In this document: piece by piece, positions 10,422-59,089 of the stretch
How positions within the stretch are numbered: position 1 is the stretch's first letter
Layout of the letters: every line of letters starts with the position of its first letter
Made by a program: the position numbers and the translations under genes
Assembly (NCBI GenBank): GCA_964531225.1
Contig: CAZHDB010000005.1
Coordinates: 7,350-71,349 of the forward strand
Origin: an uncultured Desulfurococcaceae archaeon
Lineage (GTDB): Archaea; Thermoproteota; Thermoprotei_A; Sulfolobales; Desulfurococcaceae
Direction: 5' to 3'
DNA: 64,000 nt
The notes under the pieces: generated by a model
Told to the model about the DNA's origin: nothing
The model's input: the letters and a program-made list of their open reading frames with translations, nothing else
The model's database searches: none

Positions 10422-11829
10422 ATAAAATATACAATATCACGTTTTCTACGATCATTATAATATTTCTCCAGCTATAAAGACTATACCCATCAATAACTTT
10501 ACAAGCAATTAACCATGCTGGAATAGATGAGGCAATAACATATCCATTTAGTCCACCAGGATCAATGGTTATAAAGGGAGAAGAGGCCATAGAAAGTAGC
10601 CCATAAGCCATAACATATGCTGTAATAGGCAGTATAAGTGCGTATAAGAGAAGAATGCGAGCACGTATAATGAGATGATCACGAATACTATAAAGTCTAC
10701 GCAGAAATTTAACAGTAAATCCTACATGACGACTATGATCATAGGAATATTCGATTGGTGATAAAATCATTTTTAGAATCCTAGCTACAAGAGGGGATGT
10801 ATTGACAATCGATGCTATACGATCACCTTTAAGTCCTATTTTAATCAATCTAGTAATTTCATAGGCTATATCTCTATAACTAATACTTCTATCGGAAAGA
10901 CGTTCAAGAGCCCGATCTATAGTAAATCCATGCTTCGTCTCGCTATAGAGATCTTCTGTTAGTTCATATAGTGAACTCTCAACACTTTTTATCCAATTAA
11001 TGAGGGCTCTTGATATAATGGTTGAAGTAATAGCTACCATAAGAAGCAATGGAAGAACTGTATATATTGGGGCGAATAACGGCAATAAGGAAGATAGTAG
11101 TACGTTTAAATATGAAAGTATTGTTACGATTGAAGGCTCGTATCTATATAACCTATAAACAATATGCCATGATAAAATGAATACAACACTATTAATAGTT
11201 AATAGTACGCAGTAGACGGGAGCTCTAGCTTTAATAGTACCCGGAAGACCAGATAGTACAATGACTGTTAATAGTACTATTAGGTATGCTTCATAAAAAT
11301 TTTCAATAAAGCCTACTACACCATTAATGTTTGTTTCAAGCCTAGACAGTTCCTCATTAAGCATAGTCTCTGTATAATTAAGTGTATCGCCAGTAGTTTG
11401 TAAAATACCTATATATCCCTCAAGAAATCTGGAGAATCTAGTACTCTTGAACACTGTAGCCAACTTAGATAATGCACGTATGTGGTCACTATATAGCTTT
11501 TCAAGAGACACATATTTCTGAGCAACATAACTTAACGTCTTACTGACTTCTATCTCTCCAGAAGCAATCATTCTAAATAAATCATTTACATGTAGACCTA
11601 TGGCTTCAAAGTTAATAAGTAACGATAAAAATTCAAGTAATTCTTTATCTATTTTCCTAATTCTATTTCTAAAAATAAAGATCTTTACATAGGGATAAAT
11701 AATTAATGATATAAATGGTGCGATTACTACGAGGGGATAAAGTCCCAAATAAGTTATAAGCCATAGATAGGTAAGTGCAGGAACTATAGAGATCAATATA
11801 GAGGTTCTTCTAATGTCTTTCATTAGCAT
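10411..11829 (-). CDS. Type IV pilus/archaellum-type polytopic membrane platform protein (TadC/FlaJ-like)
   Basis: 472-aa multi-TM protein. Its start overlaps the stop of the upstream secretion ATPase by 20 nt. Confidence 0.6.
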   Translation of the reverse strand: MLMKDIRRTSILISIVPALTYLWLITYLGLYPLVVIAPFISLIIYPYVKIFIFRNRIRKIDKELLEFLSLLINFEAIGLHVNDLFRMIASGEIEVSKTLSYVAQKYVSLEKLYSDHIRALSKLATVFKSTRFSRFLEGYIGILQTTGDTLNYTETMLNEELSRLETNINGVVGFIENFYEAYLIVLLTVIVLSGLPGTIKARAPVYCVLLTINSVVFILSWHIVYRLYRYEPSIVTILSYLNVLLSSLLPLFAPIYTVLPLLLMVAITSTIISRALINWIKSVESSLYELTEDLYSETKHGFTIDRALERLSDRSISYRDIAYEITRLIKIGLKGDRIASIVNTSPLVARILKMILSPIEYSYDHSRHVGFTVKFLRRLYSIRDHLIIRARILLLYALILPITAYVMAYGLLSMASSPFITIDPGGLNGYVIASSIPAWLIACKVIDGYSLYSWRNIIMIVENVILYILFNL

Positions 11830-13393: not shown

Positions 13394-13431
13394 TGATCTA
13401 TCACCTAAATAATAAATAGTATATGATTAGC

Positions 13432-13845
13432 TTAGCTAAGTAGTTCAGCTTCAATAGGCTCAGTAGATTGTCCTTCATAATAAATTATTATATAGTGTTT
13501 TGTATTAGTTAGTGTTATACCGCTTTTAGAAAGAGTTATACTTTTTGTTTCGCCGGGCTTTATAGTCTCATTGACATTGGTGATCTCTATGTTTTCGGGT
13601 AAAATCATTATCTTATTTATTGTTGTAGATTTAGTACCAACAGCGACTACCTTTATATTTACATATATGGTTCCTGTACCTAGATCAACTATTTTAGCTG
13701 ATATAGGGGATAAAGTTACATATTCTCCGGGGGAACTAAGCGTCTCCATTAGATAATTATACAATATTATTCCTCCTGCAACAGTTGCCACAATCAATAT
13801 AGCTGTTGCTACCAATGGTGAAATAGCCCTCACGTTAACACCCAT
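13432..13845 (-). CDS. Archaeal type IV pilin-like protein with class III signal peptide
   Basis: N-terminus MGVNVRA/ISPLVATAILIVATVAGG is the typical prepilin-peptidase substrate pattern. A beta-rich domain follows. Confidence 0.7.
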   Translation of the reverse strand: MGVNVRAISPLVATAILIVATVAGGIILYNYLMETLSSPGEYVTLSPISAKIVDLGTGTIYVNIKVVAVGTKSTTINKIMILPENIEITNVNETIKPGETKSITLSKSGITLTNTKHYIIIYYEGQSTEPIEAELLS

Positions 13846-42871: not shown

Positions 42872-44845
42872 TTAGGCTGCGTTTAGTAATATGGATGTAT
42901 CTATTAAGTATGTTTTATTTTCAATATTAGCTATTGCATGATGTTTTGGTAAACTGGATATAGCAATTTTTAAAACATTAATCTTTTGACTGTGTAGGTA
43001 ACCTGCTAAGCTTTTTGATATATAGTCTAGATTTCTGTATTCCCCTATATTAAATACAATTTTTATTGATGTATTGAGTATTACTGATTCATTTAGATCT
43101 AGTGGTTGTTGACTAATAATGATCATTCCGATTCCATATTTTCTACTCTCCATTAAAAGTCTCGATATTAAAGCCTTGCTTCTACTCCTTTTAAATAATA
43201 GATGGGCTTCGTCAATAACTATAGTAGCTTCTCTTTTTCTAAATGTGTACATCGCATTAATGAGTTTATACATTAATGTGTCAACATATAATGCCCGCGC
43301 ATGATCCGATGGCAATGATGCAAGTAGTACCACTGTTGGCTTTGTAAGCAATGTTTGCAAACCGATCTTGGTTTCCATAAAGATATTTGATAATAACATT
43401 CTAAGATAAGCTCTTAATCTTTCAAGAGTTAACCTGTATTGGTCACTTATTTCTCCTTCAAGTAATTCATTTAAAACTTGATATACATCATAAAATGTGG
43501 GGGCGGGCTTATCCCATGTAGAACTATTGTCATCGAATATACCATGCGCCTCATAGGTTTTAAGAATTACTTCTTCAAGGGCGTTTCTTTGTATATAACC
43601 AAGTCCATATATCGATTGTATTATATCTGCTAATTCAATAGCCCTTTCCCTAGGTGATCTGCCTTCTAAGTCCAAGGGATTGATCGAAGCTTTATCGGCT
43701 TCTAACAAGTTCACATCTTTACCCAAATACTCTAGTAGGTCTATGTATTCATTGTGATGATCAATTATGAGGAAGGGTATTTCATACTTTTTATAAATTT
43801 GTATAGCTAGGTTTTTAGCTAATGAAGACTTGCCTGTACCACTTGCCCCAAATATAGATACATGTCTATTCTTTAGCTTATCTAAATCTATTACTATGGG
43901 TTTTTCTATTTTCTTCCAATACCAAGTTTTCTTTCCTTTTTTAAAGCTTTCAAGTATAGGCTTCTGATCTATTTCGTAATAGGGATTATAGATTTTATCG
44001 TAGACCAATACTGCTTTTGCCATTCCCAGCAATACGCCTTTCTCCTTAGTAATAGTCCTTTCACCAACTATCAATGCAGATAGAAATAGAAGAGGATATA
44101 TAGATAAAGAGATCCATGGTAAGGCTATAGCTATTCCCGTTAATACAGGTATTAAAGATTCCTTAGACAGGACAGTTATAAGTATGGATATTATGAGGGA
44201 TAATAAAATTCCATAAAGGAACTGATGGAAAGCCTGAGATACTTCTGCCCCGGGATGTAAAGTGAAATATAGATCCTTATACATTCCTGTAAAATATAGA
44301 AAGTACATACTTATACCGGATATTGAAAATAGTAAAGCCAAGTTGGACAATAGAACATTAGTCAATATCTTGCCTAGCCTAATCCTAATTCTTTTAAATG
44401 ATGATTTAACTAGTTCTAGGTATATTCTATCATTAAACTCTCTTCTACTTAAAAATTGGTATCCTACGAATACCGCGAATCCTAAAGTTAAGGGGGGAAA
44501 TATTGAAAGAAGTAATAAAATACTACCGTATCCATAGAGATCTCCTATAACCTGCTTTAAAGAATACAGTTCCAATATTATAAATGACGCTGTTAAAACA
44601 AGGGATCTTGTCGTACCAGCTACAATAATAGTCATTAATAATGGAATAATGAAAATTGTTAAGAAATATAGTAATACATGTATAAATTGGTTTGAAAAAA
44701 TTCCAGCATTTATTCCGCCAGTCCATAAGGTGTTTAGAAAGTCTTGTAATAATTTAGGAGACGTACTAATTGTATGGACTAAGATTGTGTTTAAGGCTAG
44801 TAAGATAATCATTGTCTCTAGTTTAATATACTGACTACTGTTCAT
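42872..44845 (-). CDS. Polytopic membrane domain fused to a HerA/DUF87-type P-loop ATPase
   Basis: The N-terminal roughly 290 aa hold about 8 hydrophobic helices. The C-terminal part has Walker A GASGTGKSS, Walker B VIDEAHLLF and the ESRKYGIGMIIISQQP motif. Confidence 0.7.
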   Translation of the reverse strand: MNSSQYIKLETMIILLALNTILVHTISTSPKLLQDFLNTLWTGGINAGIFSNQFIHVLLYFLTIFIIPLLMTIIVAGTTRSLVLTASFIILELYSLKQVIGDLYGYGSILLLLSIFPPLTLGFAVFVGYQFLSRREFNDRIYLELVKSSFKRIRIRLGKILTNVLLSNLALLFSISGISMYFLYFTGMYKDLYFTLHPGAEVSQAFHQFLYGILLSLIISILITVLSKESLIPVLTGIAIALPWISLSIYPLLFLSALIVGERTITKEKGVLLGMAKAVLVYDKIYNPYYEIDQKPILESFKKGKKTWYWKKIEKPIVIDLDKLKNRHVSIFGASGTGKSSLAKNLAIQIYKKYEIPFLIIDHHNEYIDLLEYLGKDVNLLEADKASINPLDLEGRSPRERAIELADIIQSIYGLGYIQRNALEEVILKTYEAHGIFDDNSSTWDKPAPTFYDVYQVLNELLEGEISDQYRLTLERLRAYLRMLLSNIFMETKIGLQTLLTKPTVVLLASLPSDHARALYVDTLMYKLINAMYTFRKREATIVIDEAHLLFKRSRSKALISRLLMESRKYGIGMIIISQQPLDLNESVILNTSIKIVFNIGEYRNLDYISKSLAGYLHSQKINVLKIAISSLPKHHAIANIENKTYLIDTSILLNAA

Positions 44846-44919
44846 TTCTAAGCTCCAACATATTTTCTCTACAAGTATATGTTTCTATTATAAAGGGCTA
44901 TATTCATTATTCTGGAAGT

Positions 44920-47802
44920 ATGAATAGTAGAGTGGATAGTATGGATACAAAGCCCACCATAGACGTTAGAGAAGTATTTAGAGACGAATGTGTAGCTGAT
45001 TGTCTATCTAGCATAGGCTACAAAAAGATCTCTACCTTACAGTATAGGGTTTTTAAGAAAGTATTAATGGGATATACAGTCATAGTTATAGCACCTACAG
45101 GGATCGGCAAGACTGAAGCTGCAGTATTTCCCGTATTCTATAATATTAGTAGAAAGAGGATTAAGCCCATTGGAGCCATCTATGTTACTCCATTAAGAGC
45201 ACTTAATAGAGACATGGAGTATAGATTAAAGAAAATAGCCCAGTGTTTCGGTTTATCCGTGGCATTAAGACATGGCGATACGCCCCAGTCTTTAAGAAGA
45301 AAAATTAGAGAAAATCCTCCACACTTACTCATTACAACACCGGAGACTTTTCAATATATTCTTGCCGATAGTAGATTTAGAGAATATCTAGTAAATGTAA
45401 GATACGTAGTTATAGATGAATATAGGGAAATGATTACAAGTAAAAGAGGTATCGAATTATTATCTGCTATAAATATTCTTGAGAGGATAATTGGTAAAAG
45501 AATTATAAAGATAGGGTTAACAGCTACTCTAAGGAGAGTATATGAAGCATTATCTCTAATGGATAATTTATTATACTCCGATATTGTCGAGGCAAGTGTA
45601 GGTAAAGGAATGGAACTCTCTATAGAGACCCTCAGCGAAGAATATACTTCTCTTGACTATGAAGTTGATCCTGGCTTTTATAGTCGTTTATCTAGAGTTA
45701 AGGAATTAATTAATAGGTATAAATATGTCCTAGTCTTTGTTAATACAAGGGATCTTGCAGAAAGGATTGGCTGGGGCTTATCTTGTCTATTTGGCTTTAA
45801 AGATAAGGTAATGGTTCATCATGGAAGTTTGTCTAGACAACACAGGCTTAGAGCTGAGAGATTATTTAGAGATAGGAAGATTAATGCCCTAGTCGCAACA
45901 TCTAGCCTTGAACTGGGTATTGATATAGGTCATGTAGAGTATGTCGTGCAATACATGTCCCCAAGACAGGCTGTAAGACTTATTCAGAGAATTGGAAGAA
46001 GCATCCATAGAATCGAAGGTTTGCCTAGGGGGTCAATAATTACTTTGGGAAACTTCTTTGACGTACTCGAGTCAATAGTTATTGGCAGAAGAGCTCTCCT
46101 AGGTCAACTCGAGGATGAAGATATTCCTCAAAAACCGCTTGATGTACTGGCTCATCAAGTAGTTCTAAGGATTCTGGTAGAACCTGGCATTAAATATGAT
46201 GATTTATTTTTAGAATTTCATACTTCCAGAGTATTTAATGGACTGAGTGAAGAAGAGTTTAAACAAGTAGTTGACTACCTCGTGCTATCCCGTATTGTTA
46301 GGATTAGAGATAATAGACTTTATCCTAGCTATAGAGCAAAGATCTATTTCTATCGTACAACAATGATTCCAGATACAAGAAGTATAGCTGTTATCGATGT
46401 GAGCACTGGTAGGAAAATTGGTGTATTGAATGAGGAGTTCATAATACTAAATCTCGAAGAAAACTCAATACTTGTACTGGGTGGTGGTTCATGGAGAGTC
46501 ATAGGATTTGATCAGGATGAGGGCAAGCTCTATGTAGAGCCAGTTGAGGAAAAAACCCAGATCATTATACCAAGATGGGAAGGCGAAAGCATTCCTGTCG
46601 AGTATAAGGTTGCCCGAGAAATGGGTGCTTTTGTTAGACTAGCCATTGAGAGAGATCTGGATTACGCAATTAATAGGCTTGGCTACCATAATTTAAAGAT
46701 CTCCAAGGAATCCACGAAGATCATAGATAATTTACTTAATTCCATGTCATATACCGATAAAGTCTTACCTAGTGATCGTAGTATGGTTATCGAAATTAAT
46801 TCTGAGAATAAATACATCATATTATATGGGTTCTTTGGTTCAAAGGTATCTAATACGCTTAAGGAGATAATTCTTGCTTTAACTAGAAAACACATATATG
46901 CAAACGTATCGGCGTACGCTACACCATATTATATTATTGTATCATTCGAGAATTATAGGCCCAAGATCGATGATGTAAACGAAATTATTTATAGATTAAA
47001 AGCTCTAGGCAGTAATTTTAAGCTCTTCGAGAAATATGTCTCAAAGATTATAAAGGAAAGCAAAACCTTCTTATGGAGGATATTCTTCGTTGGACAGAGA
47101 TTCGGAGCCATAGATATTAGGAAGAAAGAAAAGCTCTCCAAGAGCATTCTCAAGGCCTTAGCTGATACAGTTATTGGAGTAGAAGCCTATAGAGAGACCT
47201 TGCTTAGGGATTACGATCTTATAAATACTTATCATTTATTACGAAGGTTATATATGGGGACATTGAAGGTCTATGTGTTTGTAGATCGAGAGCATGTTTA
47301 TCCATTATTTAAAGAAGCTATAAATAGGATACCTGGTTCAATAGAATTAAACGTAGTCGATCTCGAGACGTATAAACGTCGATTACTGAAGAAAAAAATC
47401 TCACTTATATGCATGATCTGTAGCTATAAATGGAGCTTAAGAGTAGAGGATGTGATTAAAGAGCATCATATAGAATGTCCTAAATGCGGCTCCAGATACG
47501 TAGCTACAGTAAAAGGTGATGGAGATAAGGAGCAGAGAATAGTGAGAAGAGTTCTTAACAAGAAGAAGCTTAGACATGACGAAAAGCAAATTTACAAAGA
47601 TCTTCAGAGACGAGGTTTACTTGTAATGGACTTTGGTCCCAAAGCTGTACTTATACTTGCGTCGCGTGGCGTTGGTTTTACTGAAGCAGTTAGAATAATA
47701 AATAAGTATAGAGGAGATGAAAAGGAATTAATTAAGTTACTTTATGAAGCTGAGAAGAAGTTCATACGCATTAAGAAGTATTTAGACAAACCTAGGGTAT
47801 AA
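44920..47802 (+). CDS. Lhr-like large superfamily 2 helicase with C-terminal zinc ribbon
   Basis: Motif I APTGIGKTEAA, DEYREM, HHGSLSRQHR and SSLELGIDIG. C-terminal CMICSY...CPKCGS. 960 aa. Confidence 0.75.
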   Translation: MNSRVDSMDTKPTIDVREVFRDECVADCLSSIGYKKISTLQYRVFKKVLMGYTVIVIAPTGIGKTEAAVFPVFYNISRKRIKPIGAIYVTPLRALNRDMEYRLKKIAQCFGLSVALRHGDTPQSLRRKIRENPPHLLITTPETFQYILADSRFREYLVNVRYVVIDEYREMITSKRGIELLSAINILERIIGKRIIKIGLTATLRRVYEALSLMDNLLYSDIVEASVGKGMELSIETLSEEYTSLDYEVDPGFYSRLSRVKELINRYKYVLVFVNTRDLAERIGWGLSCLFGFKDKVMVHHGSLSRQHRLRAERLFRDRKINALVATSSLELGIDIGHVEYVVQYMSPRQAVRLIQRIGRSIHRIEGLPRGSIITLGNFFDVLESIVIGRRALLGQLEDEDIPQKPLDVLAHQVVLRILVEPGIKYDDLFLEFHTSRVFNGLSEEEFKQVVDYLVLSRIVRIRDNRLYPSYRAKIYFYRTTMIPDTRSIAVIDVSTGRKIGVLNEEFIILNLEENSILVLGGGSWRVIGFDQDEGKLYVEPVEEKTQIIIPRWEGESIPVEYKVAREMGAFVRLAIERDLDYAINRLGYHNLKISKESTKIIDNLLNSMSYTDKVLPSDRSMVIEINSENKYIILYGFFGSKVSNTLKEIILALTRKHIYANVSAYATPYYIIVSFENYRPKIDDVNEIIYRLKALGSNFKLFEKYVSKIIKESKTFLWRIFFVGQRFGAIDIRKKEKLSKSILKALADTVIGVEAYRETLLRDYDLINTYHLLRRLYMGTLKVYVFVDREHVYPLFKEAINRIPGSIELNVVDLETYKRRLLKKKISLICMICSYKWSLRVEDVIKEHHIECPKCGSRYVATVKGDGDKEQRIVRRVLNKKKLRHDEKQIYKDLQRRGLLVMDFGPKAVLILASRGVGFTEAVRIINKYRGDEKELIKLLYEAEKKFIRIKKYLDKPRV

Positions 47803-49756
47803 GACCTAGTGCTCTAAACGATTCAATCACTTCTTCTCGTCTATATTTAGTTGATCTTTTCCATGCTTTCGCGTTACCAGTAATTAATGGTACAAGAATT
47901 TTTTCAACAAGAACATCGGCTAACGGGCAGACTTCTAGACATAGCCTACAGCCACTACATGGTATCTTTGGCAATGGGCCTTGGCTAGTTAGCCTAATTA
48001 CATTCATTGGGCACCATATAACGCAGCTGATGCATCTTGCACAGCCGTGTATCCTATATATTATTTTTAGTACATCGATGAGATCCTCTATACCCTTTTC
48101 TTCATGTATTCTATATTTAACTGTGTTCTTATCGATAATGACTTCCGCTTTGCTGCTAATTATTGACCAGCTAAGTGTGTCTTTATTTCTGGATATAGTT
48201 AAGTGCTTTAGCATTCTTATATTAGTTGAAAATTGTTGCTGAGCAGTATCTGGTACAAGATCTTTATTGAATACTAGATATTTCCAGTTATTAGCCTCCT
48301 TATGTTCTATAGGCGTTAAGTTAATTCTGCTATTGAGTAATCTAAGCCTATATTCTTTGATCCAGTCAATTTTATAACTAGGTATTTTTATGGCAAGTCT
48401 TTGCTTTGCAACCGCTGGAGTTAACCAACGCCATAAACCATATTTTATCCATTCCTGTGGCTGACTAAGTCTCTTTCTCCATTGTTCAAGTACATCGATC
48501 CATTTCTGCCATAGGTTAGGATATGTCCTTTTAACTTCATTGAACTCTGCCAAAGTACTAGATGGGCACATATAGCATCCAAGTCTCTCGAAACCTAGAT
48601 CGTATAGTTTATTATAGGGTAATTTGTGTTCGAATATATATAGCCATATATGTAACTGACTCCATTCTTGTATAGGCGTTATACTCAATAGGTGGGGTAT
48701 CCATCTATTTCTCCAAACCCTTGGGCTCTTAGCTCGATCAATAGACTCATAAGCTCTTTGACCAACAATATTTAGTGCCCCGCTAGGCCACTTATGCCTT
48801 GCAATACGTGCTAATGGAACGAGTTTAACGATTTTACAGCACCATCTATAATCCTTGCCTGGAGGACCAAAGATCTCTACTGCATCCCAAAAAGCATTTC
48901 CAGCACTGGCAACTACTTTCTCTAAGCCATATCTATCGGCAATAGAATCTACATTAGATACGGTATCTGGAAGCTCTAAACCAGTATCATTAAATAGTAG
49001 TTTAACGTCTCCCAATGTCTCTAAAGTTAGATGGAGTGCTGTAAGACTATCCTTTCCTCCGGAATATGACACAACAACTTCTTTTCCTACTTTTTCAGAC
49101 ATAGAGTATAGAAAGGCCTTTGCTCTTGATTCGAAATAGTACAAGCCGTACTTATTATGTTTTAAGACATCGTGTAGATTGGCATTACGTTCACTAGTCT
49201 CCCTAGGTCTATGAATATATTTAAAAACCTTGGTAATGACAACTGTTCCATCAATATTTTCAGCTAATCCTCTAACCTTACCTTTGCAATCTACTACTAC
49301 GACTTGTCTACTACTTGAAGAATAGTTTTCTCTAATAATCCTCTTCTCACGTATAAAACCATCATATGTTACGTAGTCTACCAGGTTTTCTTCATAAGCA
49401 ATTAATGCACCAGTAGAACTAAGTCTAAATCTCCATCCTCCTCTAAATGGATCATAGAATAACTGGCCAATGACATTACCTGAACTTATAATTTCCCACA
49501 TTTGATCCCAGTGGGGAACTTTATTTAATAGAATAAACTTGTTATGGATAAATCTATTATATATAGCATCATCATTAAATTCGTATCTAATGGCCATAAG
49601 AAGCTTTTCATAATCCTTTATAAAACCAGGCCTAGCGTCCCCAGGATCAGTCATCCTTAATTTAAATACATTATCTTCATTGCCAGGCTCGGGCTTAATA
49701 AGCGGAACATTATATATGGGATCCCAGTAAATTGTTGCTCTAACAGGCCATGACAC
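47792..49756 (-). CDS. PAPS-reductase-family PP-loop protein with N-terminal extension and C-terminal 4Fe-4S ferredoxin-like domain
   Basis: PP-loop VVSYSGGKDSLTALHL. C-terminal Cys clusters CARCISCVIWCP and CSGCRLCLEVCP. 654 aa. Confidence 0.65.
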   Translation of the reverse strand: MSWPVRATIYWDPIYNVPLIKPEPGNEDNVFKLRMTDPGDARPGFIKDYEKLLMAIRYEFNDDAIYNRFIHNKFILLNKVPHWDQMWEIISSGNVIGQLFYDPFRGGWRFRLSSTGALIAYEENLVDYVTYDGFIREKRIIRENYSSSSRQVVVVDCKGKVRGLAENIDGTVVITKVFKYIHRPRETSERNANLHDVLKHNKYGLYYFESRAKAFLYSMSEKVGKEVVVSYSGGKDSLTALHLTLETLGDVKLLFNDTGLELPDTVSNVDSIADRYGLEKVVASAGNAFWDAVEIFGPPGKDYRWCCKIVKLVPLARIARHKWPSGALNIVGQRAYESIDRAKSPRVWRNRWIPHLLSITPIQEWSQLHIWLYIFEHKLPYNKLYDLGFERLGCYMCPSSTLAEFNEVKRTYPNLWQKWIDVLEQWRKRLSQPQEWIKYGLWRWLTPAVAKQRLAIKIPSYKIDWIKEYRLRLLNSRINLTPIEHKEANNWKYLVFNKDLVPDTAQQQFSTNIRMLKHLTISRNKDTLSWSIISSKAEVIIDKNTVKYRIHEEKGIEDLIDVLKIIYRIHGCARCISCVIWCPMNVIRLTSQGPLPKIPCSGCRLCLEVCPLADVLVEKILVPLITGNAKAWKRSTKYRREEVIESFRALGLIP

Positions 49757-49966: not shown

Positions 49967-52900
49967 GTGTCACATATGAATAGAATTATATACTCTGTAC
50001 TACTTGCTATACTACTCACACTAAACCTAACAGCTGTCGCAACGGCATCACCAACATTTGCACCAGCACAAGCTCCAGGAGTAACTGCAGATATTGAGGT
50101 ATTATCACCATTAAACATAACCGATCCACTGTTAATAGGTAAAGACATATCAATATACTTACCTGGATGCTGTTTATTAGCAGTAGTTGATGTAAAGTCC
50201 CTAGAAGATCAAGGTGTCGACATAGGTTTAGTTGATGTACTGTTTACACCAGATGCAAACTGGTGGGGTGCAGAAGTAGTTAAGTATATTGACTTAAACA
50301 CAACAACTGATGGATGGATAAACAACCCTGAAACAGGAGTTAACTACGCTATTATCAGAAGCTCTACAGATCCAAACATTGTATTACTAGCAATAGATCT
50401 AAGTACAATAGACTTATCTAATGTCGTTGTTCACAGAGAGGCCTTTGGAGACATAGTAGTTATGAACTTGTATGGTATACCTCTATGGCTTAGAGTAAGA
50501 GACTATAACCCGCCATCGCCACCAGATAGTGCTTTAAGTGTAAATAGATTCGCCGTTATACAGCCTCCAGTAATCGATTGGGATGAATATATAACAGTTG
50601 AATACTTCATTGGTAACACAGAAGCAGACAAGGCAAAATATGGTACAAAGGTTAATATAACAATTAGATTACCTGACGAAATCAAGTACTTACTTAACAT
50701 AACTGGCGGCGCACCCGAATTAACATTCGAGAATGTTACTGTATTCAATGTAACAATGTTTAACCTAGACAATCCTGCAGATAGAGACCTGCTTTATAGC
50801 AATCTATTCCTAGTGCCGCAGGACAATGATTATCTAGAATTAGTGGATTGGGACATTTCTGCAGATGGTACTGTATTGAACATAACAGGCTACGTAAGAG
50901 ACTTCGCGCCTCTAGCAGTTCACGAAGATGCATCATCTGAGCCTAAGGCGTTCTATGGATTTGAGGTCTACTTAGAGTTTAACCGCACTGCCGATGTAGG
51001 TTATGGATTAAATCTATCAGAACTACCACCATGCCCTAATGTAGTTGATAATGATACGATTAGCTTCGTATTTAGTACTACAGGCTCAACATCAACAGTA
51101 TATGTTGAGGTATGGACATCATTAGAAGTAGTAGGCAATTATACCGATGTAGCATTTGATCCCTCTGATCTTAATCCCGGAGATGTTGTAAGGTTCAAGC
51201 TGCACAACCTACCAGTTCCCTATAATGATACGCTGTATCAAGTAGTATTTACGACATCATATACAACAATTGTATCAACAACCTTTAGCTACGTTGGAAC
51301 AGAATCAACACCTGCTGAAGGTATAGTAGTGTATGATGTGACATTACCTGATGGTGAATGGGGTGGATTAACAGCTTATGTAACATTCGTATTTAGGAGA
51401 GTAGGCTATGAGATACATGTTAGTGAGCACCCATCATGCTATCCTGTAACTGTTGTTGTAAAGCCTTATGCTGACATATTTGTATTACTCAATGATCCTT
51501 CATACATAGTTGCTCAGGACGGTGTTATTTATAGACAATTCGTACACTGGAGTCAATCAGACTATACGGCAGCACCAGGCGATTATATACTTGTTAAAGG
51601 CTATGGCTTTATAACTGAAGGAGGACTAGACGTTCTCATTAACGAGACAATAACGCTTAAGAAACTTCTAGAAAGGAACAGTTCATCAGATCCGGGTCTT
51701 GAACCTGGTAGGGCAATTCTTGTAGTAAAGGTTAATGTAACTGAAAACGGAGTAATATGTCCATGTAGAGATAATAGGTTAACTGTTGTAGGCACACTCT
51801 ATAATAGCACTAACAGATACACTACTGATGAGAACCTAACAATAGACTTTAGACCGGATCTATGGAAGATACTTGTCAATCCAGATCTACTATATGATCC
51901 TGTAGCACAGACAGTCTATGTAACACAGGAGAGACTATCATTATTCGATGTATACTATGACCTAGTTGATGATCCAGTGGCTCCGGGTGGCGATAAATTT
52001 GTTGAGGATACATTAGATGAGGAGTTCAGACTAGAAGTAATAGGTGTTAATGCGTCGAGCGTCGAGCTATTGTTTGACAATACCTATCCACACTTCCTTA
52101 ACTTCACATGGAATAATGTTAGTCTACAGTGTGGCTATGCGTATGTGGACTATACTGGTGCTACAATACCATTCTATCCAATGGGTACCTACACCTTAGT
52201 GGTACTTAATGGCACTACTGTCCTAGTGCCTGAGGCCATTAATGGTTCAGACGTCTTTGAAGTACATCCGAACCTGGATATCGACGTATTACCAGATGAC
52301 GATACGTCTGGCAGGAGATGCTGTAACGTAACATTCAATGTTGTTGGCGGACTACCTGATGACGTATTAACATTCCATGGTAATGCAGTGATAGAGATTA
52401 CTACTGACGAGTTCGGAGGACCAACTGTATGGAGAACCGAGGCAATATCTGTAGATGTAGCTACTAATACTTATGGTATTGGCAACACTACAATATATGG
52501 AACAGTATTCTACGACTCAACAGAGCTCCAGAATGATGTAAAGTCCTACATGGATGGACACTCATTCTCTGGTGAAGGAGATATATCGTTTACAATAGAT
52601 TATAGTGGTGAGCTAGACTACTTCACTAATGACACACTAGTAATATGGTATGTCTACTGGGGTACTAATACTGAAAGAGAGTTTACACTTGAAGTAACTG
52701 GTACAGTACATTACTTTGAAGTTACTGACGAGATTGATTGGACAGTCTCTGTAAAAGTACCTAGGACAAGAGTTGTAGTATCTGTACCCGAGACAGTTTT
52801 ACCTGGAGACAATATTACTATACAGATATTTGTACATGAGACTGCTGTATCTCATGACCAAGTAACTCCTGAGAAACTATGGGAGTTAATGTATCCATAC

Positions 52901-54535
52901 TGGATTAGTGTAAGATTGGTAGACGTATCAGCATCAACGAGCGGTAGTTGGGTCGCATTATATGGTGGATGGTTAAGATTTGACTCTGGTACGACTGAAG
53001 TAGAATTACCTAATGGCAAAGTTGCAAAGCTTGTACGCGTATTAGAGGATGTTGATGGCGACGGCGTCGATGAGGTTGTATTCCTTGTCGTCATACCTGC
53101 ACCTATAACAACATATGATGTGACACTAAGAGTTGATGTAAACATCACATTAGCTTATGAGAACACGGGTACCCCGACATTCCTTGACCTAGTAGACGAT
53201 GAATGTACATTTGAAGCAAACTATACTGGCGCTAGATTGTGGGCTACTCACTACACTCATGTCCTATATGGAGGCGATCATCATCTTACAACAGTACTTG
53301 GACTATTAGAGGCTAAGCTAGACTATATTAAGGATGATACAGTCTATATCAGAGGAAAAGTCGATGACGTATGGACGTTTATAACCGTTGATCTAATGGA
53401 CTTCCTAGAGGCTATGAACAACTCTATAATAACAAAGATTGATGGCAGTACTGCCACTATATTAACCACGCTTGGAGAGATCAATGTAAGCTTAACAGAC
53501 CTAATGACAACACTGGCTGGCGAAATAGAATTTAAGATCGACGAGTCCACAGCAACAATTATTGCAAAGCTTGAGGATGTCAATGCGACATTATACCTCA
53601 AGATCGATGAGAGTACTGACTTCTTAGCATCATTAGTCGGCGATCTATTTACCAGGCTTGACGAATTAGAGGCCAACGTAGTCTATACAATACTTGCTGT
53701 AAACGAGTCGGTAGTAGGGCATATAGATGTCGTTGCTGACGACTTGAGATATGATATACTACTAAGAATCGATGAAGCGGAAGAAACACTAAGCGATCTA
53801 ATAACTGTCAAGGCCGATGAGATCGAATATCTCATTAATGAGGCAAACATAACGATAGTGGCCAAGATCGGTGAATCAACATTGACAATAACTGATGCAG
53901 TTGATAGTGCTAAGGCCGACCTCGAAGTCTATATTGATGGACAGACTGCTACCATTAGAAGCGATATAGCCGCTGTAAAGACTGATACTGAGAGTATAAT
54001 CGACTTAGTAAATGCTCTACAGACAAGTGTCAGCGACTTATCTGTAAAGCTAGTACAGGTAAATGACACACTATATGCATTAGTATTAAGTGTTGGAGAT
54101 GATGTAAAGGCAACAATCATTGGTAAGGCAGACGACATATTAGGATTCCTCAACGAGTTTAAGACAGCTACTGAGACAAGCTTTAGCAATGTATTATCAG
54201 CTATTGATGAATTAGGTACTGATGTTGAGGCTGCTAAGGCAGAAGTACTAGCCAACTTATCGAGTGTATACAGTGATCTATCAAGCAAGCTTGATGACTT
54301 AAGCTCAGCAATATCGGATGCCAGTACAAGCATAGAAGACAAAATTACAAGCGCTAAGAATGAGTTAAGCACCAAGGTAGAAACACTAGCTGGAGACTTA
54401 AAGAGTACTGTTGAAGAGAAGACTGATGCTGTAAACAGCAATGTAACGACTTTCAGTCTAACACTATTGATACTTGTAATAGTCTTAATAGGACTAGTAG
54501 GCTACAGCTTAATAGTTGCCAGAAGAGCTAGGTAA
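49967..54535 (+). CDS. Tetrabrachion-like S-layer glycoprotein (signal peptide, large sequon-rich ectodomain, long coiled-coil stalk, C-terminal TM anchor)
   Basis: The likely start is the ATG at 49976 (MNRIIYSVLLAILLTLNLTAVATA), behind AGGTG. There are many NxS/T sequons. The last roughly 420 aa are coiled coil, ending in TFSLTLLILVIVLIGLVGYSLIVARRAR. 1522 aa. Confidence 0.75.
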   Translation: MSHMNRIIYSVLLAILLTLNLTAVATASPTFAPAQAPGVTADIEVLSPLNITDPLLIGKDISIYLPGCCLLAVVDVKSLEDQGVDIGLVDVLFTPDANWWGAEVVKYIDLNTTTDGWINNPETGVNYAIIRSSTDPNIVLLAIDLSTIDLSNVVVHREAFGDIVVMNLYGIPLWLRVRDYNPPSPPDSALSVNRFAVIQPPVIDWDEYITVEYFIGNTEADKAKYGTKVNITIRLPDEIKYLLNITGGAPELTFENVTVFNVTMFNLDNPADRDLLYSNLFLVPQDNDYLELVDWDISADGTVLNITGYVRDFAPLAVHEDASSEPKAFYGFEVYLEFNRTADVGYGLNLSELPPCPNVVDNDTISFVFSTTGSTSTVYVEVWTSLEVVGNYTDVAFDPSDLNPGDVVRFKLHNLPVPYNDTLYQVVFTTSYTTIVSTTFSYVGTESTPAEGIVVYDVTLPDGEWGGLTAYVTFVFRRVGYEIHVSEHPSCYPVTVVVKPYADIFVLLNDPSYIVAQDGVIYRQFVHWSQSDYTAAPGDYILVKGYGFITEGGLDVLINETITLKKLLERNSSSDPGLEPGRAILVVKVNVTENGVICPCRDNRLTVVGTLYNSTNRYTTDENLTIDFRPDLWKILVNPDLLYDPVAQTVYVTQERLSLFDVYYDLVDDPVAPGGDKFVEDTLDEEFRLEVIGVNASSVELLFDNTYPHFLNFTWNNVSLQCGYAYVDYTGATIPFYPMGTYTLVVLNGTTVLVPEAINGSDVFEVHPNLDIDVLPDDDTSGRRCCNVTFNVVGGLPDDVLTFHGNAVIEITTDEFGGPTVWRTEAISVDVATNTYGIGNTTIYGTVFYDSTELQNDVKSYMDGHSFSGEGDISFTIDYSGELDYFTNDTLVIWYVYWGTNTEREFTLEVTGTVHYFEVTDEIDWTVSVKVPRTRVVVSVPETVLPGDNITIQIFVHETAVSHDQVTPEKLWELMYPYWISVRLVDVSASTSGSWVALYGGWLRFDSGTTEVELPNGKVAKLVRVLEDVDGDGVDEVVFLVVIPAPITTYDVTLRVDVNITLAYENTGTPTFLDLVDDECTFEANYTGARLWATHYTHVLYGGDHHLTTVLGLLEAKLDYIKDDTVYIRGKVDDVWTFITVDLMDFLEAMNNSIITKIDGSTATILTTLGEINVSLTDLMTTLAGEIEFKIDESTATIIAKLEDVNATLYLKIDESTDFLASLVGDLFTRLDELEANVVYTILAVNESVVGHIDVVADDLRYDILLRIDEAEETLSDLITVKADEIEYLINEANITIVAKIGESTLTITDAVDSAKADLEVYIDGQTATIRSDIAAVKTDTESIIDLVNALQTSVSDLSVKLVQVNDTLYALVLSVGDDVKATIIGKADDILGFLNEFKTATETSFSNVLSAIDELGTDVEAAKAEVLANLSSVYSDLSSKLDDLSSAISDASTSIEDKITSAKNELSTKVETLAGDLKSTVEEKTDAVNSNVTTFSLTLLILVIVLIGLVGYSLIVARRAR
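53438..54163 (+). repeat. 22 consecutive in-register 11-residue (undecad) repeats within the stalk
   Basis: IDGSTATILTT/LGEINVSLTDL/MTTLAGEIEFK/IDESTATIIAK/LEDVNATLYLK/IDESTDFLASL/... /DDILGFLNEFK, with hydrophobic residues recurring at positions 1, 4-5 and 8. Confidence 0.75.
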
Positions 54536-54542
54536 ATGCTAT

Positions 54543-54571
54543 AAAAATATTTAAATTACCAAATATTTTTT
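54543..54571 (+). terminator. Perfect 10-bp inverted repeat plus T-run after the S-layer gene
   Basis: AAAAATATTT (54543-54552), loop aaattacc, then AAATATTTTT (54561-70) followed by T. It starts 8 nt after the stop codon. Confidence 0.45.
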
Positions 54572-54685
54572 ATAAATACTTCACTTTTAATGTTTCAACA
54601 TATTTCTTTACTCGAGACATTATTGATTATAACTAGTTTTATACAGAACCATTTTTAAGGATTTTAAGAAGGTCTAGGGAGGTAG

Positions 54686-55123
54686 TTGAGATCATTAACA
54701 CAGTACCTATCAATGGCTATTATATTGTCAATAATGGTATCCGTATCTGCATTATTGACTACATACATAAACAATGTATATGAGTCCGTGTTAAGGGTTA
54801 AAGGAAATCTCTTCGATAATGCAATTGTTTTAAATAAATTAGAATTAGAAGGAAATAAGATTGTTATAATAGACTTTAAAAGAGAAGCGATAATTTATGA
54901 CATTATTATAATTTATCCCTTAAACAATTATAGTTACTCCATACTTAGGTTCATAGGCAACGGGACTAAACAGGTACATTATTATAATGTAACAATATTT
55001 TATCAAAATATAACTTGTCTTCATGATAAACTCGTTGGCATAAGAAACTCATTAATAATTATAAGAGTGCCCATAGGACTACGTATAAAAATATATTCTA
55101 TGGAGGACATTCATTATGCTTAG
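54686..55123 (+). CDS. Hypothetical N-terminally anchored/pilin-like protein, first gene of the Ced-like operon
   Basis: TTG start behind GGGAGGT. N-terminus MRS-LTQYLSMAIILSIMVSVSALL, followed by a beta-rich domain. Overlaps the next gene by 8 nt. Confidence 0.5.
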   Translation: MRSLTQYLSMAIILSIMVSVSALLTTYINNVYESVLRVKGNLFDNAIVLNKLELEGNKIVIIDFKREAIIYDIIIIYPLNNYSYSILRFIGNGTKQVHYYNVTIFYQNITCLHDKLVGIRNSLIIIRVPIGLRIKIYSMEDIHYA

Positions 55124-57224
55124 ATCCATGTCAGCATATCCTTTAGCGATCATGTTAACAATATCACTAATTACAATAACAGTAGTGACAATAAACTCTA
55201 TGGCAAAGATATCAACACTAACAACTAGTATTAATGAAAAAGAGAAAACGACACCAATAACCTATTACTTGTATAATGACTCTTTATACATAATACCTAT
55301 TAAGAGGTACAGTGGCAGTATAAGAATAATTGCAATAGATGAGCACGGGTATATTGATGTACTAGAACTAAATAGATCTTTATTAAAGAATAAAATAGCA
55401 TATGGTCCTATACCATTATATTATAAATATCTAATTATTCAAAATGAAGATCATGTAATATTGGATGTATTAGGAGAATTGGATTCTAAAAGCATCAATA
55501 TGGAGTTCCTCCATCCACTACCTCCATCATTATATGTTCATCCGGCCCTCTCTGTAGTAGATTACATAGATCAACATAGTGGGATAAACAATTATTATGA
55601 AGTAGTTCCAAAAATTAATGATATTATTGAAAACATACTCTATCCTAATTTAACTTATAAAATAGATAATGAATTATATAAGCCTACGGCTATTAATCAG
55701 AGTATACAAATAAAGACAAATAGCAGTAAATACTACAGTCCGAACGATACTTTTCTAATCAATATAACAAATATATTAATGCACGGTACTCAATACTACG
55801 GAGGATATCTCGTTAGAATCGAAATTAACTCAACAAAACCTTTAGAGTTTGTAGAGGGATTAAGCGATAACTATACTCATCATAACCAAGTTTATCCTCG
55901 CAATACAGAGACTATTGAAGTAGTTGAAACACATACTCTATTAAATAAAACTGTTGATTCAGGTTATATAACTGATATCTTAATAAATGCTACACACGAA
56001 ATACTGAATGCATCAATTATAGGATTATGGTCTGGAAGAGTTGTAGCAGCATTCTATGAAATAACATACAATTTAACACTCACCAATGGTTCATCAAGTA
56101 CTTCCTATATTGTTAGAACAAATACAACAAGTATCAACATAAATAATTACACTATGATTATAAATAAGATGTTTAATAATATTAGCTATTCTTCGTCGAA
56201 TAGTTCTATTAAAGCAATATTGATAATTAGATACAATATTGTACCCATAGAGATTGGTAGTGAGCCTTTGTTACTTGATCTCTATTCTCATATACACGGT
56301 AACATTCAAAATAGATCGTTACGAATTATAAGACATAATACACTGCAATTAATCACAGATGATATAGAGAATTTTATAGTTGATCGAAACAGTATATTAA
56401 TCTATTCAACTATGTATTCATTAAAGAATAATATTTCATATAGGATACTGACAAACAATTCAATCCTTGATCGTGGTAATAATCTCCACATTTTACTTAA
56501 TTTTTATGGTAGAGCAAACATCTCCATAACCGAATACGCTTTGCCTGACATAGTAATTAATGATAACGGGATTATATTAACTAATATTGTTAATAATGCA
56601 ACTATATCGGGCAATATGTCGGGTATTTTATGGTTTAATACCAATGAAAAACCATTACATATAAGATATAAAGTCCCATCGATAGTCAAGATCGGTATTG
56701 TACAATTATATATAAGTACGTATTCTGTTTTACTTAGGGATTACTACGAAAATAAAACGTATATATACAATGGCACATTTTATTTAGTAAATGGCTCCAA
56801 AATTAGATTTATACAAAATGTAATCATATTACGTAATATAACCTATGCACAGCCCTATATCTATTTTCCCTGTACTATAAATCTAACTATGTATATTGGA
56901 TATACGGATGGGCAAATGGAGATAATAAATACAAGTTATGGCAAGCCTTTATACAGATTGAGGAATATGCTTATCAGAAATATAACAGTTAAATTAAATC
57001 ATTATGGATCCCGAATATATGGCTCCTTAAATACTCCATTTCTATTTATTAATTTCAGAAATACTACTGATTACGCCTTTATTGAAAAAGATATGCTTAG
57101 GCATATCAATATTTTTGGGAATATTATTGTTATTTATAGGACAAGGATTTATGGTTATGAAGTATCTCTATTACTTTCGCCAACCCCTCCCTTTATTAAA
57201 TATCCCGAACCTATACTAGGGTAA
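55116..57224 (+). CDS. Large Asn-rich, sequon-rich extracellular protein with pilin-like N-terminus
   Basis: N-terminus MLRS-MSAYPLAIMLTISLITITVV. 702 aa with more than 25 NxS/T sequons and no further TM. The next gene starts 5 nt downstream. Confidence 0.5.
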   Translation: MLRSMSAYPLAIMLTISLITITVVTINSMAKISTLTTSINEKEKTTPITYYLYNDSLYIIPIKRYSGSIRIIAIDEHGYIDVLELNRSLLKNKIAYGPIPLYYKYLIIQNEDHVILDVLGELDSKSINMEFLHPLPPSLYVHPALSVVDYIDQHSGINNYYEVVPKINDIIENILYPNLTYKIDNELYKPTAINQSIQIKTNSSKYYSPNDTFLINITNILMHGTQYYGGYLVRIEINSTKPLEFVEGLSDNYTHHNQVYPRNTETIEVVETHTLLNKTVDSGYITDILINATHEILNASIIGLWSGRVVAAFYEITYNLTLTNGSSSTSYIVRTNTTSININNYTMIINKMFNNISYSSSNSSIKAILIIRYNIVPIEIGSEPLLLDLYSHIHGNIQNRSLRIIRHNTLQLITDDIENFIVDRNSILIYSTMYSLKNNISYRILTNNSILDRGNNLHILLNFYGRANISITEYALPDIVINDNGIILTNIVNNATISGNMSGILWFNTNEKPLHIRYKVPSIVKIGIVQLYISTYSVLLRDYYENKTYIYNGTFYLVNGSKIRFIQNVIILRNITYAQPYIYFPCTINLTMYIGYTDGQMEIINTSYGKPLYRLRNMLIRNITVKLNHYGSRIYGSLNTPFLFINFRNTTDYAFIEKDMLRHINIFGNIIVIYRTRIYGYEVSLLLSPTPPFIKYPEPILG

Positions 57225-57521: not shown

Positions 57522-58925
57522 ATGGAGTATGAATTACTTGTTACAGCATTTTACTTATCAGCTCTCTCCTATTACATAGGTACATTACTCTACATGCTAC
57601 CTATACCTTTCTACGGTGTAAAGAAATGGGCTCCCACACTCATGGTTGACGGCATATTCTCAGCTATATTGGTCTTTGCATACACTATACTACTATGGCT
57701 GATAGAATATTTTGGAGAATTACTAGGTAGTGACTGGACTTCATTCTATACATGGCTTGGAGTGAAAACAGGTATTGTTGCTACATTAATGACTGTATTA
57801 AGAGTAATTGCTGCAAGCGCATCCTTTACTGGTGCAAAAGTTATTGTTAGTAGCGTTATATCGCCACTAATATCATCGCTAACATATGTTACAATGACAT
57901 TATTAACAATAGCTATGATAGCAGTAATTATAACAAGTTATGGAGCTAGACTACTTACGCTAGGAATATTATTACATGCGGTACCATTTAGACTAACTAG
58001 AGCCAGCGGAGCCATGATCATTTCAATAATAATGGTTTTCTCTATAGGCTTACCAATAATGCCTTTATATGTAGAGCTATTATCTCAACCTATTGGAGTA
58101 CCGGACTTAATAGTAGTTGACTATGGCATAGCATATGTAAAGATACATGTTAATGACAGTATTGGAAACCCTATATCATTTCCTGTATTTAAAGCCTTTA
58201 CACATGATAATATGACTTTAGCTGTCTATTATGGTGGAGAAGATGGTATAATAGATGCAACACGCCAGGATAGCGGGTTACCTGGTTCTAGAAGCTATAA
58301 TGTAGATATAGATATTGCTGGAATACACTTATTTAAAACAATAGATCCTGTTAAAGAATACATGAATGGAAATAATACGTTTTATAAGCTACATATATCA
58401 ATTAATAATACACTTCAACTTGAACCATTACATTTGATCTATTTAGAAGGAATTAGTATACAAAATTATTCATTAGGCTCCGGATACTACGAACTTGTTG
58501 TCTATAGTTATGAAAGTAATTACTTCTATGTAATAACTTGTCAGCAAGATACTGTAATAGTGTATATTGATGGTGAAATAGAGAGTCCGTTGGAAACAAT
58601 AAGTTACACATGGTATAACATTGATATGGTTAGTCTTAAATATCAATTATCATCAGGGCAACATACTATCGCTATCGAAATTTCGTATAATGAGATCCCT
58701 GTTCCTGAAGTCGATGAAGTCTATTACTTAAGAGATATAGCTAATATATCGTTGCTTAGTCCCTTAACGATAATTAACCCTATAGTATATTTAATATTTA
58801 ATTTATTCATAGCTCCGCTATCTTATATTGTAGTCTTAGTGTCATCATCATATGCTTTAGCTAAACTGATTGGTGGTACTACTCCAAGCCTATTTCGTGC
58901 ACTAACTGTAGGAGGAAGGCTTTAA
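57522..58925 (+). CDS. Polytopic membrane protein, CedA/VirB6-like candidate, with inserted extracellular beta-rich domain
   Basis: About six TM helices in the first 190 aa, a roughly 240-aa soluble region, then a C-terminal TM pair. Confidence 0.5.
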   Translation: MEYELLVTAFYLSALSYYIGTLLYMLPIPFYGVKKWAPTLMVDGIFSAILVFAYTILLWLIEYFGELLGSDWTSFYTWLGVKTGIVATLMTVLRVIAASASFTGAKVIVSSVISPLISSLTYVTMTLLTIAMIAVIITSYGARLLTLGILLHAVPFRLTRASGAMIISIIMVFSIGLPIMPLYVELLSQPIGVPDLIVVDYGIAYVKIHVNDSIGNPISFPVFKAFTHDNMTLAVYYGGEDGIIDATRQDSGLPGSRSYNVDIDIAGIHLFKTIDPVKEYMNGNNTFYKLHISINNTLQLEPLHLIYLEGISIQNYSLGSGYYELVVYSYESNYFYVITCQQDTVIVYIDGEIESPLETISYTWYNIDMVSLKYQLSSGQHTIAIEISYNEIPVPEVDEVYYLRDIANISLLSPLTIINPIVYLIFNLFIAPLSYIVVLVSSSYALAKLIGGTTPSLFRALTVGGRL

Positions 58926-59089
58926 TGAATATTGAATGGATTATATTATTAATGATGATATTCGTTATCGCGATTTCTTTAATGACTATAGAGCCTCCAA
59001 GATCTTTTATGATCAATGTATTATTTGTGTCAATAATATTATTTTTAAAACTGTTAATAAAGAAGGTGAATAAAGAACATGAAATTTAG
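58925..59089 (+). CDS. 54-aa two-TM protein (CedA2-like candidate), not in ORF track
   Basis: The ATG shares its A with the upstream TAA (TAATG). Product is MNIEWIILLMMIFVIAISLMTIEPPRSFMINVLFVSIILFLKLLIKKVNKEHEI. Overlaps the ATPase start by 11 nt. Confidence 0.55.
   Translation: MNIEWIILLMMIFVIAISLMTIEPPRSFMINVLFVSIILFLKLLIKKVNKEHEI

Follow-up and report, generated by a model that had tools for sequence, protein, structure and literature searches.

In a 64,000-nucleotide (nt) stretch of a contig from an uncultured Desulfurococcaceae archaeon (GCA_964531225.1, CAZHDB010000005.1, positions 7,350 to 71,349 of the forward strand; hereafter the window), two genes encoding proteins of 145 and 702 amino acids (aa) precede cedA1, the first of four genes of the crenarchaeal DNA-exchange system (Ced). 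We tentatively read this small-large pair, at somewhat less than an even chance, as an accessory, fast-evolving and often-lost module of two surface glycoproteins with class III (PibD, prepilin-peptidase) N-termini, fixed at the 5' side of the ced genes. Judged from their sequences, the two proteins probably form an adhesin or minor-pilin-like module serving Ced-mediated exchange, through contact with the partner cell or its recognition. The lineage is known from metagenome assemblies alone, and the loci compared with the window carry L numbers.

Re-reading the coordinates in the window bore out the arrangement described in an earlier note on this DNA, in which open reading frames (ORFs) of 145 and 702 aa overlap by 8 nt (55116-55123) and only 5 nt separate the stop codon of the large gene from the cedA1 ATG at 57230. 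The same 8-nt overlap is also kept in seven further loci (L001, L002, L003, L005, L010, L038, and L040). The large gene starts with ATG and the small one with TTG, the latter with GGGAGGT ahead of it at 54677-54683. Homologues of the small gene have ATG, GTG or TTG at the same start codon and the best-conserved stretch of the family is its N-terminus, M[KR]x[LV][ST]xY[LIV]S, which supports the TTG start. Between the window and L002, the ratio of nonsynonymous to synonymous substitution (dN/dS) is 0.25-0.28 for the pair, indicating purifying selection, and 0.03-0.14 for the ced genes. Purifying selection on both ORFs, together with the conserved overlap, shows that these are real genes and not chance ORFs. 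They evolve 2-10 times faster than the ced genes, their products being 22-62% identical to those of the window, compared with 70-93% for CedA1, 40-82% for CedA, and 37-80% for CedB.

A word-indexed search of 5.8 billion clusters returned five relatives per protein and an exhaustive profile search of 1.84 billion representatives found 10, some with ~20% identity yet full length. These relatives come from metagenome-assembled genomes of Desulfurococcaceae from hydrothermal samples. No match was found in Pfam or NCBIfam for the pair in the window or for 11 aligned members of the large family. Searching the PDB sequences with hmmsearch gave nothing for the large-family profile and, for the small-family profile, chance matches to the transmembrane (TM) helix of PsaJ alone (E of at least 0.16); VirB5/TraC-like entries were absent from the results for both families. 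The pair is a new, narrow and unannotated family within a subgroup of Desulfurococcaceae. The earlier statement that it is unlike any described Ced component also holds, with nothing of the kind in PMC9905601, PMC11823120, or PMC11868833. When the two families are compared with each other by hhalign, residues 2-86 of the small protein align to residues 3-83 of the large one, covering the helix and the first strands (probability 78%, E = 1.8e-5), which suggests that the small protein is paralogous to the N-terminal module of the large one.

Genomic contexts were read by exact-protein look-ups, by searching genomes with a CedA alignment (34 loci) and by searching metagenomes with a CedA1 alignment (80 loci). 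In all readable contexts of the family, the small gene is followed by the large one immediately 5' of cedA1 (window, L001-3, L005-8, L010, L025, L038-42, L043-46, L048, L049, and L059-61). No family member was seen away from ced among these contexts, despite divergence to ~20% identity, and this strict adjacency to cedA1 across deep divergence argues against the absence of any relation to Ced. The co-occurrence that the earlier note proposed to check is found in one direction only: every readable homologue adjoins cedA1, but most ced loci do without the pair. One apparent case of a pair unlinked from ced, L003, was ruled out as a chimeric contig that retains the first 25 codons of cedA1. In this Logan contig (2808-3838), ~25 cedA1 codons are fused in frame to the coiled-coil region of a giant S-layer-like gene.

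The archaeal class III rule asks for G, A or S at position -1 of the processing site and a charged residue ([KR], sometimes D/E) at -2 (PMC4371748). The N-terminus of the large family has the form M(x)0-6[KR][GAS]↓[LVIM][ST]xYP[LVIM] (the arrow marks the predicted site), with RS, KS, RA, KA or KG at -2/-1 in all members, down to 16-26% identity, and with invariant Y and P (Y8 and P9 in the protein of the window). A class III (PibD) signal in the large protein is thus supported by the fit of its N-terminal sequence to the rule throughout the family. The earlier note had proposed such a signal for both proteins, and the claim stands for the large one but is only partly sustained for the small one. 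The small protein of the window (RS↓LT) passes the rule and its family shares [LV][ST]xY[LIV]S, but only 8 of 14 members conform. In the window, the two leaders have 3-4 residues and the hydrophobic H-domain starts directly after the site. A simple implementation of the published rule, applied to ORFs of at least 60 aa in the window, was passed by three ORFs only, which are the pair and a canonical pilin (13432-13845); among 933 ORFs of the fetched genome loci, it was passed by members of the pair and one spurious ORF only. In L041, the N-terminus of the large protein (VKA↓LSSYPIALL, 7965-8001) lies upstream of the called ATG, with no in-frame ATG, GTG or TTG after the preceding stop and with a Shine-Dalgarno-like GAGGGGG motif before ACG GTT, so that the start codon may be non-canonical or the sequence in error.

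The large protein had been described as Asn/Ile/Tyr-rich, with more than 25 sequons and a sole, N-terminal TM segment, and this is confirmed. It contains 10.3% N, 15.5% I, and 8.5% Y, and its 32 NxS/T sequons compare with 10.8 ± 2.9 in composition-preserving shuffles (z = 7.3). The small protein has 4 sequons where 1.3 are expected, while the cytoplasmic CedB, taken for comparison, has 1 where 2.5 are expected. Each protein of the pair has one hydrophobic segment on the Kyte-Doolittle scale (threshold at least 1.6), at residues 4-29 in the small and 5-30 in the large one. Both are supported as genuine, uncharacterised extracellular proteins that are predicted to be N-glycosylated.

Structure prediction and a Foldseek comparison, which the earlier note had suggested as a check, turned out to be uninformative. 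With alignments of 5 sequences, AlphaFold2 modelled the small protein as a helix (residues 2-44) followed by beta strands, with a mean predicted local distance difference test (pLDDT) score of only 54, and the large one as a helix (9-39) and a beta domain (48-119, pLDDT ~72), with a mean pLDDT of 38. Foldseek searches of both low-pLDDT models against the PDB found no match with E of 0.001 or less, the hits being scattered among unrelated folds. The secondary structure of the ectodomains is predicted, in these poor models, as mainly beta and not helical. This helix-plus-beta layout would be compatible with a pilin-like lollipop, although we do not count it as evidence.

To describe the promoters, the 90 nt before cedA1 were aligned from all loci. 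An A[CG]TTTC[GA] element at -38 to -62 of cedA1, followed by a C-rich spacer and a TATA-like box, is present in almost all ced loci of Desulfurococcaceae and Sulfolobaceae, pair-bearing or not (L001-L122). The DNA damage-responsive element (DDRE) of Sulfolobus is 5'-ANTTTC-3', with the consensus AATAGTTTCRG, and is located between -23 and -55 relative to the ATG; Orc1-2 binds to it and cedA1 induction depends on it (PMC6061795). The conservation of a Sulfolobus-type damage promoter element before cedA1 across Desulfurococcaceae is a result that stands on its own. The site of the window (57173-57203) is the top match to the position weight matrix (PWM) in the entire window. With a PWM trained on pair-lacking loci alone it scores 12.6, against a 99th percentile of 11.0 in random 120-nt windows, and the sites in other pair loci score 8.3-17.0. 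This promoter falls within the last 15 codons of the 702-aa ORF, and the conserved C-terminal peptide of the large family, LSP(N/T)PP(L/F)IK(Y/N)P, is the cedA1 promoter read as codons. Overprinting of the promoter by the 3' end of the large ORF can explain why this peptide is conserved, and the 5-nt spacing to cedA1 more likely comes from an ORF running across the promoter than from translational coupling.

The six-gene coupled operon of the earlier note has to be revised in view of these data. The overlap of the small and large genes and the adjacency to cedA1 remain, but a single coupled operon is weakened because the DDRE-plus-TATA promoter of cedA1 is internal to the large ORF and shared by loci that lack the pair. 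The genes from cedA1 to cedB have their own promoter, with a TATA box ~30 nt before the cedA1 start, and are presumably damage-inducible. An AT-rich block ahead of the small gene, TATACAGAACCATTTTTAAGGA, is conserved in the window (54640-54661), L001, L002, L003, L005, and L041, and we presume that the pair has a separate promoter region there. Read-through from this putative promoter into ced is plausible. The pair is outside the core translocon and outside the damage-responsive promoter control of cedA1-cedB.

The pair is missing from ~20 of the 34 genome loci and ~50 of the 80 metagenome loci, all Sulfolobaceae included, and even from ced loci with the same long CedA. In loci without it, cedA1 is placed after a divergently transcribed gene similar to phosphoadenosine phosphosulfate (PAPS) reductase. 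Within the own clade of the window (95-99% identity in CedA1), an intact large gene is found in the window itself, L003, and L045, and three other loci have 1-nt deletions in it. Those of L044 differ from those of L005 and L043, which have in common an A6-to-A5 change at codon ~90. This poly-A change could be slippage-type phase variation and not simple decay. In L004, L031, and L047, the whole pair is deleted and the last ~60 nt of the large gene remain. The ced genes are intact in every frameshifted or deleted locus of this clade. The pair is an optional accessory and not a core Ced component. Finding it intact, frameshifted or deleted in one clade, with ced always intact, is typical of surface recognition factors, and this optional, decaying distribution argues against a core structural role. 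Being strictly ced-linked, surface-exposed and glycosylated by prediction, hypervariable and polymorphically lost, and having pilin-like N-termini, the pair has the traits that a determinant of recognition or adhesion, or a surface structure targeted by viruses, would be expected to show.

In about two thirds of the pair loci, a giant glycoprotein gene (1500-2300 aa, tetrabrachion-like, C-terminally anchored) is found upstream. The pair is present and the giant gene absent in L038-L040, and the giant gene is present and the pair absent in L004, L031, and L047; the association of the pair is therefore with ced, and the possibility that it belongs to the giant S-layer-like gene was discarded on the basis of L038-L040 and L004/L047. 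A run of at least six T lies 9-43 nt past the stop codon of the giant gene in 12 of 12 loci, and the interval from the large stop codon to cedA1 is free of runs of at least five T in 11 of 12. The product of the copy in the window (49967-54535) has 1522 aa and is tetrabrachion-like. It has a signal at the N-terminus, a coiled coil at the C-terminus, a TM anchor and 37 sequons (z = 7.8), and is likely to be the S-layer protein.

A second lineage (L028, L087, L091, and L093) has, in the same slot before cedA1, a sequon-rich protein of 642-643 aa with a textbook class III signal, MKYSKAERRKG↓LSNLIGALL, conserved across these loci as RRKG↓LSN[VL]IGALL. The gene has no small partner and extends, with its stop codon, into the TATA-like box of the cedA1 promoter. 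Its product shows no detectable relation to the family (hhalign probability 0.1%) and is taken as an independent analogue, and its presence before cedA1 gives independent support to a functional tie between such surface proteins and cedA1. The bins of L028 (Nitratiruptor sp.) and L031 (Woesearchaeota) hold crenarchaeal ced genes, and these two loci are probably mis-binned.

If the pair works as we suggest, both proteins would be inserted by the Sec pathway and PibD would cut off the leader of 3-4 residues, at least from the large protein. The retained N-terminal helix would then anchor the protein or permit co-assembly. The conserved 8-nt overlap suggests coupled, roughly matched synthesis and a heteromeric pair. 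Outside the cell, the glycosylated ectodomain of 670 residues may act as a contact or recognition factor for Ced DNA exchange, contributing to mating-pair formation. Such a role, which we infer from sequence, would parallel that of UpsA or UpsC in Sulfolobales and of VirB5/PrgB-type adhesins in bacterial conjugation.

Several observations weigh against this proposal of PibD-processed accessory glycoproteins. Six of the 14 members of the small family fail the class III rule, with P, Q, C or V at -1, Y at -2, or a motif that could not be aligned, and P and Q at -1 occur in the small proteins of the nearest relatives of the window. The leaders are short (2-7 residues) and the conserved Y-P at +4/+5 is atypical of known archaeal pilins. 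A gene for a pilus ATPase or PilC is absent from the module; the pilus locus of the window is 41 kb off and no evidence tying it to the pair was found. The models are unreliable and Foldseek gave no match with E of 0.001 or less, leaving a pilin or adhesin fold without support. A DDRE was not found in the 120 nt upstream of the small gene (best PWM score 1.8, random-like), and this region is random-like in 13 of 14 loci, with L008 as the exception, so co-induction with ced is not indicated. Finally, most ced loci do without the pair.

Some of these data would fit uncleaved, type II signal-anchored glycoproteins that form a structural extracellular part of Ced, such as a scaffold or sheath that bridges the wide gap under a tetrabrachion-type S-layer, loosely like VirB8/VirB10. 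The motif at the N-terminus would in that case serve to pack the helix against CedA/CedA1 instead of being cut by a peptidase. We consider this unlikely, even though it accommodates the non-permissive -1 residues of the small family and the strict adjacency to cedA1, and the Y-P (large) or Y-x-S (small) inside the helix suggests a packing motif. The 220-aa extracellular insert of CedA in this lineage and the giant S-layer-like gene adjoining about two thirds of the pair loci also speak for it. However, a core part is not expected to be missing from most ced loci with the long CedA, nor to show frameshifts or deletion in near-identical relatives in which ced is intact. A plain anchor also leaves the strict G/A/S at -1 of the large family unexplained, and the rate of evolution of the module, 2-10 times that of the ced genes, does not favor a structural part. 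It is a good deal less probable that the pair is unrelated to Ced, as S-layer-associated or generic surface glycoproteins kept in place by chance or hitch-hiking. The presumed promoter region of the pair is its own and DDRE-free, the pair is optional, and a giant tetrabrachion-like gene is directly upstream in many loci, but the pair adjoins cedA1 even without the giant gene (L038-L040), and loci that have lost the pair (L004 and L047) retain the giant gene. In addition, no family member was seen elsewhere despite divergence to ~20% identity, and the T-rich runs separate the pair from the giant gene (T6 run before the pair in 12 of 12 loci) rather than from cedA1 (none after the large stop codon in 11 of 12).

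The two proteins could also be minor subunits or a tip complex of the CedA1 pilus itself, with their helices inserted in the lipid-containing filament and a VirB5-like adhesin cap, which seems to us very doubtful. The position immediately 5' of the pilin gene cedA1 recalls that of virB5 near virB2, each protein combines a single N-terminal helix with an ectodomain, and an analogous class III protein precedes cedA1 in the second lineage. A precedent comes from bacterial VirB5, which is cited in PMC11868833 as a pilus-tip adhesin. On the other hand, a resemblance to VirB5 or to any PDB entry was detected neither in sequence nor, with the poor models, in fold, and the ectodomains are predicted to be beta-rich and not helical. 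The CedA1 pilus of Aeropyrum pernix assembles, and the published ced locus is without such genes (PMC9905601, PMC11823120). The DDRE promoter would express cedA1 without the pair. We know of no precedent for PibD substrates in a VirB2-type pilus, which is a further difficulty. A hybrid Ced apparatus, in which PibD-processed pilin-like proteins are built into the VirB2-like CedA1 pilus or cap it as a variable adhesin, has a slim chance in our estimation. If true, a signal in the style of type IV pili would have been recruited to a type IV secretion-style filament, and the class III protein in the same slot of L028, L087, L091, and L093 would point to a general design for partner choice in Ups-less archaea.

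The type IV pilus locus of the window is on the - strand (10411-13845) and comprises a canonical pilin, a T2SSE ATPase (527 aa) and a T2SSF-like membrane protein (472 aa). The pilin (137 aa, 13432-13845, - strand) begins with MGVNVRA↓ISPLVATAILIV and likewise has no Pfam match. Its position beside T2SSE and T2SSF indicates that a PilB/PilC-type assembly locus with its own pilin is present in the window. No significant similarity was detected between the small protein of the pair and this pilin. A weak DDRE-like site (AGTTAC, C-rich stretch and TATA; PWM score 8.4) is located ahead of the pilin gene, from 13925 on the - strand, and the locus could be an Ups-like, damage-induced pilus.

The coordinates of the pair, of the ced genes and of the related features in other loci are given in the table below. 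The CedA-like and CedB-like genes match their NCBIfam models with scores under the cutoffs. In this lineage, CedA has 450-480 aa, compared with the 259 positions of its model, which it matches over ~190 aa at the N-terminus; past this region there is a sequon-bearing extracellular insert of ~220 aa and then a C-terminal TM segment. We found 39 homologues, Staphylothermus and Thermosphaera among them. Upstream of ced, the gene order of the window (42872-49756) is conserved in most Desulfurococcaceae loci. It includes a HerA/VirB4-type ATPase with CedD as best match (42872-44845, - strand; 77 bits, below the cutoff), whose orthologues in related loci are multi-TM. The other two genes encode a helicase of the Lhr type (44920-47802, + strand) and a PAPS-reductase/4Fe-4S protein (47792-49756, - strand). 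PCNA, XPB, and reverse gyrase are found still farther upstream, making this a DNA-repair-rich neighbourhood.

Table. Features of the pair and of the ced locus in the window, and positions of related genes in other loci.
Feature	Position	Strand	Details
Small gene, 145 aa	54686..55123	+	N-terminus MRS↓LTQYLS...; helix residues 4-29; predicted beta-rich ectodomain of ~110 aa
Large gene, 702 aa	55116..57224	+	N-terminus MLRS↓MSAYPLAIML...; helix residues 5-30; predicted beta-rich ectodomain of ~670 aa
Class III-type signal of the large protein	55116..55205	+	Leader MLRS 55116-55127; predicted PibD site after Ser4; H-domain 5-30
T6 run, terminator-like	54566..54571	+	31 nt past the stop codon of the giant upstream gene; divides it from the pair
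AT-rich block TATACAGAACCATTTTTAAGGA	54640..54661	+	Presumed TATA/promoter region of the small gene; DDRE-free
cedA1 promoter	57173..57203	+	DDRE hexamer ACTTTC 57173-57178; C-rich spacer; TATA-like TTTATTAAATAT 57192-57203
cedA1, VirB2-like Ced pilin, 88 aa	57230..57496	+	NCBIfam NF041797, 123.6 bits (cutoff 100)
cedA-like gene, 467 aa	57522..58925	+	N-terminal ~190 aa correspond to the CedA match
54-aa protein in the cedA2 position	58925..59089	+	Two TM segments; position conserved; no match to a family model
cedB-like gene, HerA/VirB4-type ATPase, 555 aa	59079..60746	+	
Large gene with deletions, L005	1702-3793		Independent assembly
Large gene with deletions, L043	1734-3837		Independent assembly
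Large gene with deletions, L044	4012-5992		Independent assembly
642-643-aa protein, L028	565-2496		
642-643-aa protein, L087	4035-5966		
642-643-aa protein, L091	567-2495		
642-643-aa protein, L093	507-2438		

The pair shares with the known Ced components (CedA, CedA1, CedA2, CedB, CedD, and CedE) its locus and strand and its place beside cedA1, but it is not homologous to any of them and is lacking in Sulfolobales and in most ced loci of Desulfurococcales. The known components are polytopic or cytoplasmic, whereas the proteins of the pair are extracellular, predicted to be glycosylated, and dispensable in close relatives. With the VirB5/TraC minor pilins and PrgB adhesins, they have in common that they are accessory extracellular proteins, coded next to the genes for the pilin or channel of a machine that transfers DNA, fast-evolving and variable, and expected to take part in partner-cell contact. 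No similarity to those proteins was detected, however, and beta structure prevails in the predicted ectodomains of the pair. Its signals resemble class III instead of depending on Sec/signal peptidase I or LPXTG, and Ced imports DNA.

Archaeal type IV pilins and other PibD substrates resemble the pair in the short charged leader with [KR] at -2, G/A/S at -1, and [LIVM][ST] at +1/+2, in the H-domain of ~25 residues right after the site, and in the N-glycosylation sequons. The invariant Y-P of the large protein is unusual among them, and the small partner often breaks the -1 rule. The pair also differs in having neither a match to a Pfam or NCBIfam pilin family nor an adjacent assembly ATPase or PilC. 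Large class III proteins outside filaments do have a precedent, the sugar-binding proteins of the Sulfolobus bindosome (PMC4371748).

The closest analogue, by description, is UpsC (Saci_1302), a large glycosylated minor type IV pilin with a class III signal that belongs to the UV-inducible Ups pili of Sulfolobales; cells need it to aggregate, its gene is not part of the ups operon, and AlphaFold could not model it (PMC11823120). The likeness lies in the class III-type N-terminus, the very large sequon-rich ectodomain that AlphaFold cannot model, the link to Ups/Ced DNA exchange, the coding apart from pilus assembly genes, and the proposed tip or recognition role. UpsC has ~49 kDa, compared with the 702 aa of the large protein, and is not beside cedA1, whereas the pair adjoins it and includes a small partner gene. 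It is also UV/DDRE-regulated, while the own upstream region of the pair is DDRE-free, and it occurs in Sulfolobales and the pair in Desulfurococcaceae. Ups is lacking in Aeropyrum pernix, a member of the Desulfurococcales, and in some other crenarchaea that have Ced (PMC9905601). Ced partners that interact with the S-layer have been anticipated (PMC11823120); the parts that the authors of the Ced/Ups papers expect to be found are extracellular or of this S-layer-interacting kind. We suggest that the pair is a testable candidate for the extracellular part of Ced, which may find or hold the partner cell in Ups-less archaea as UpsC is proposed to do in Sulfolobales.

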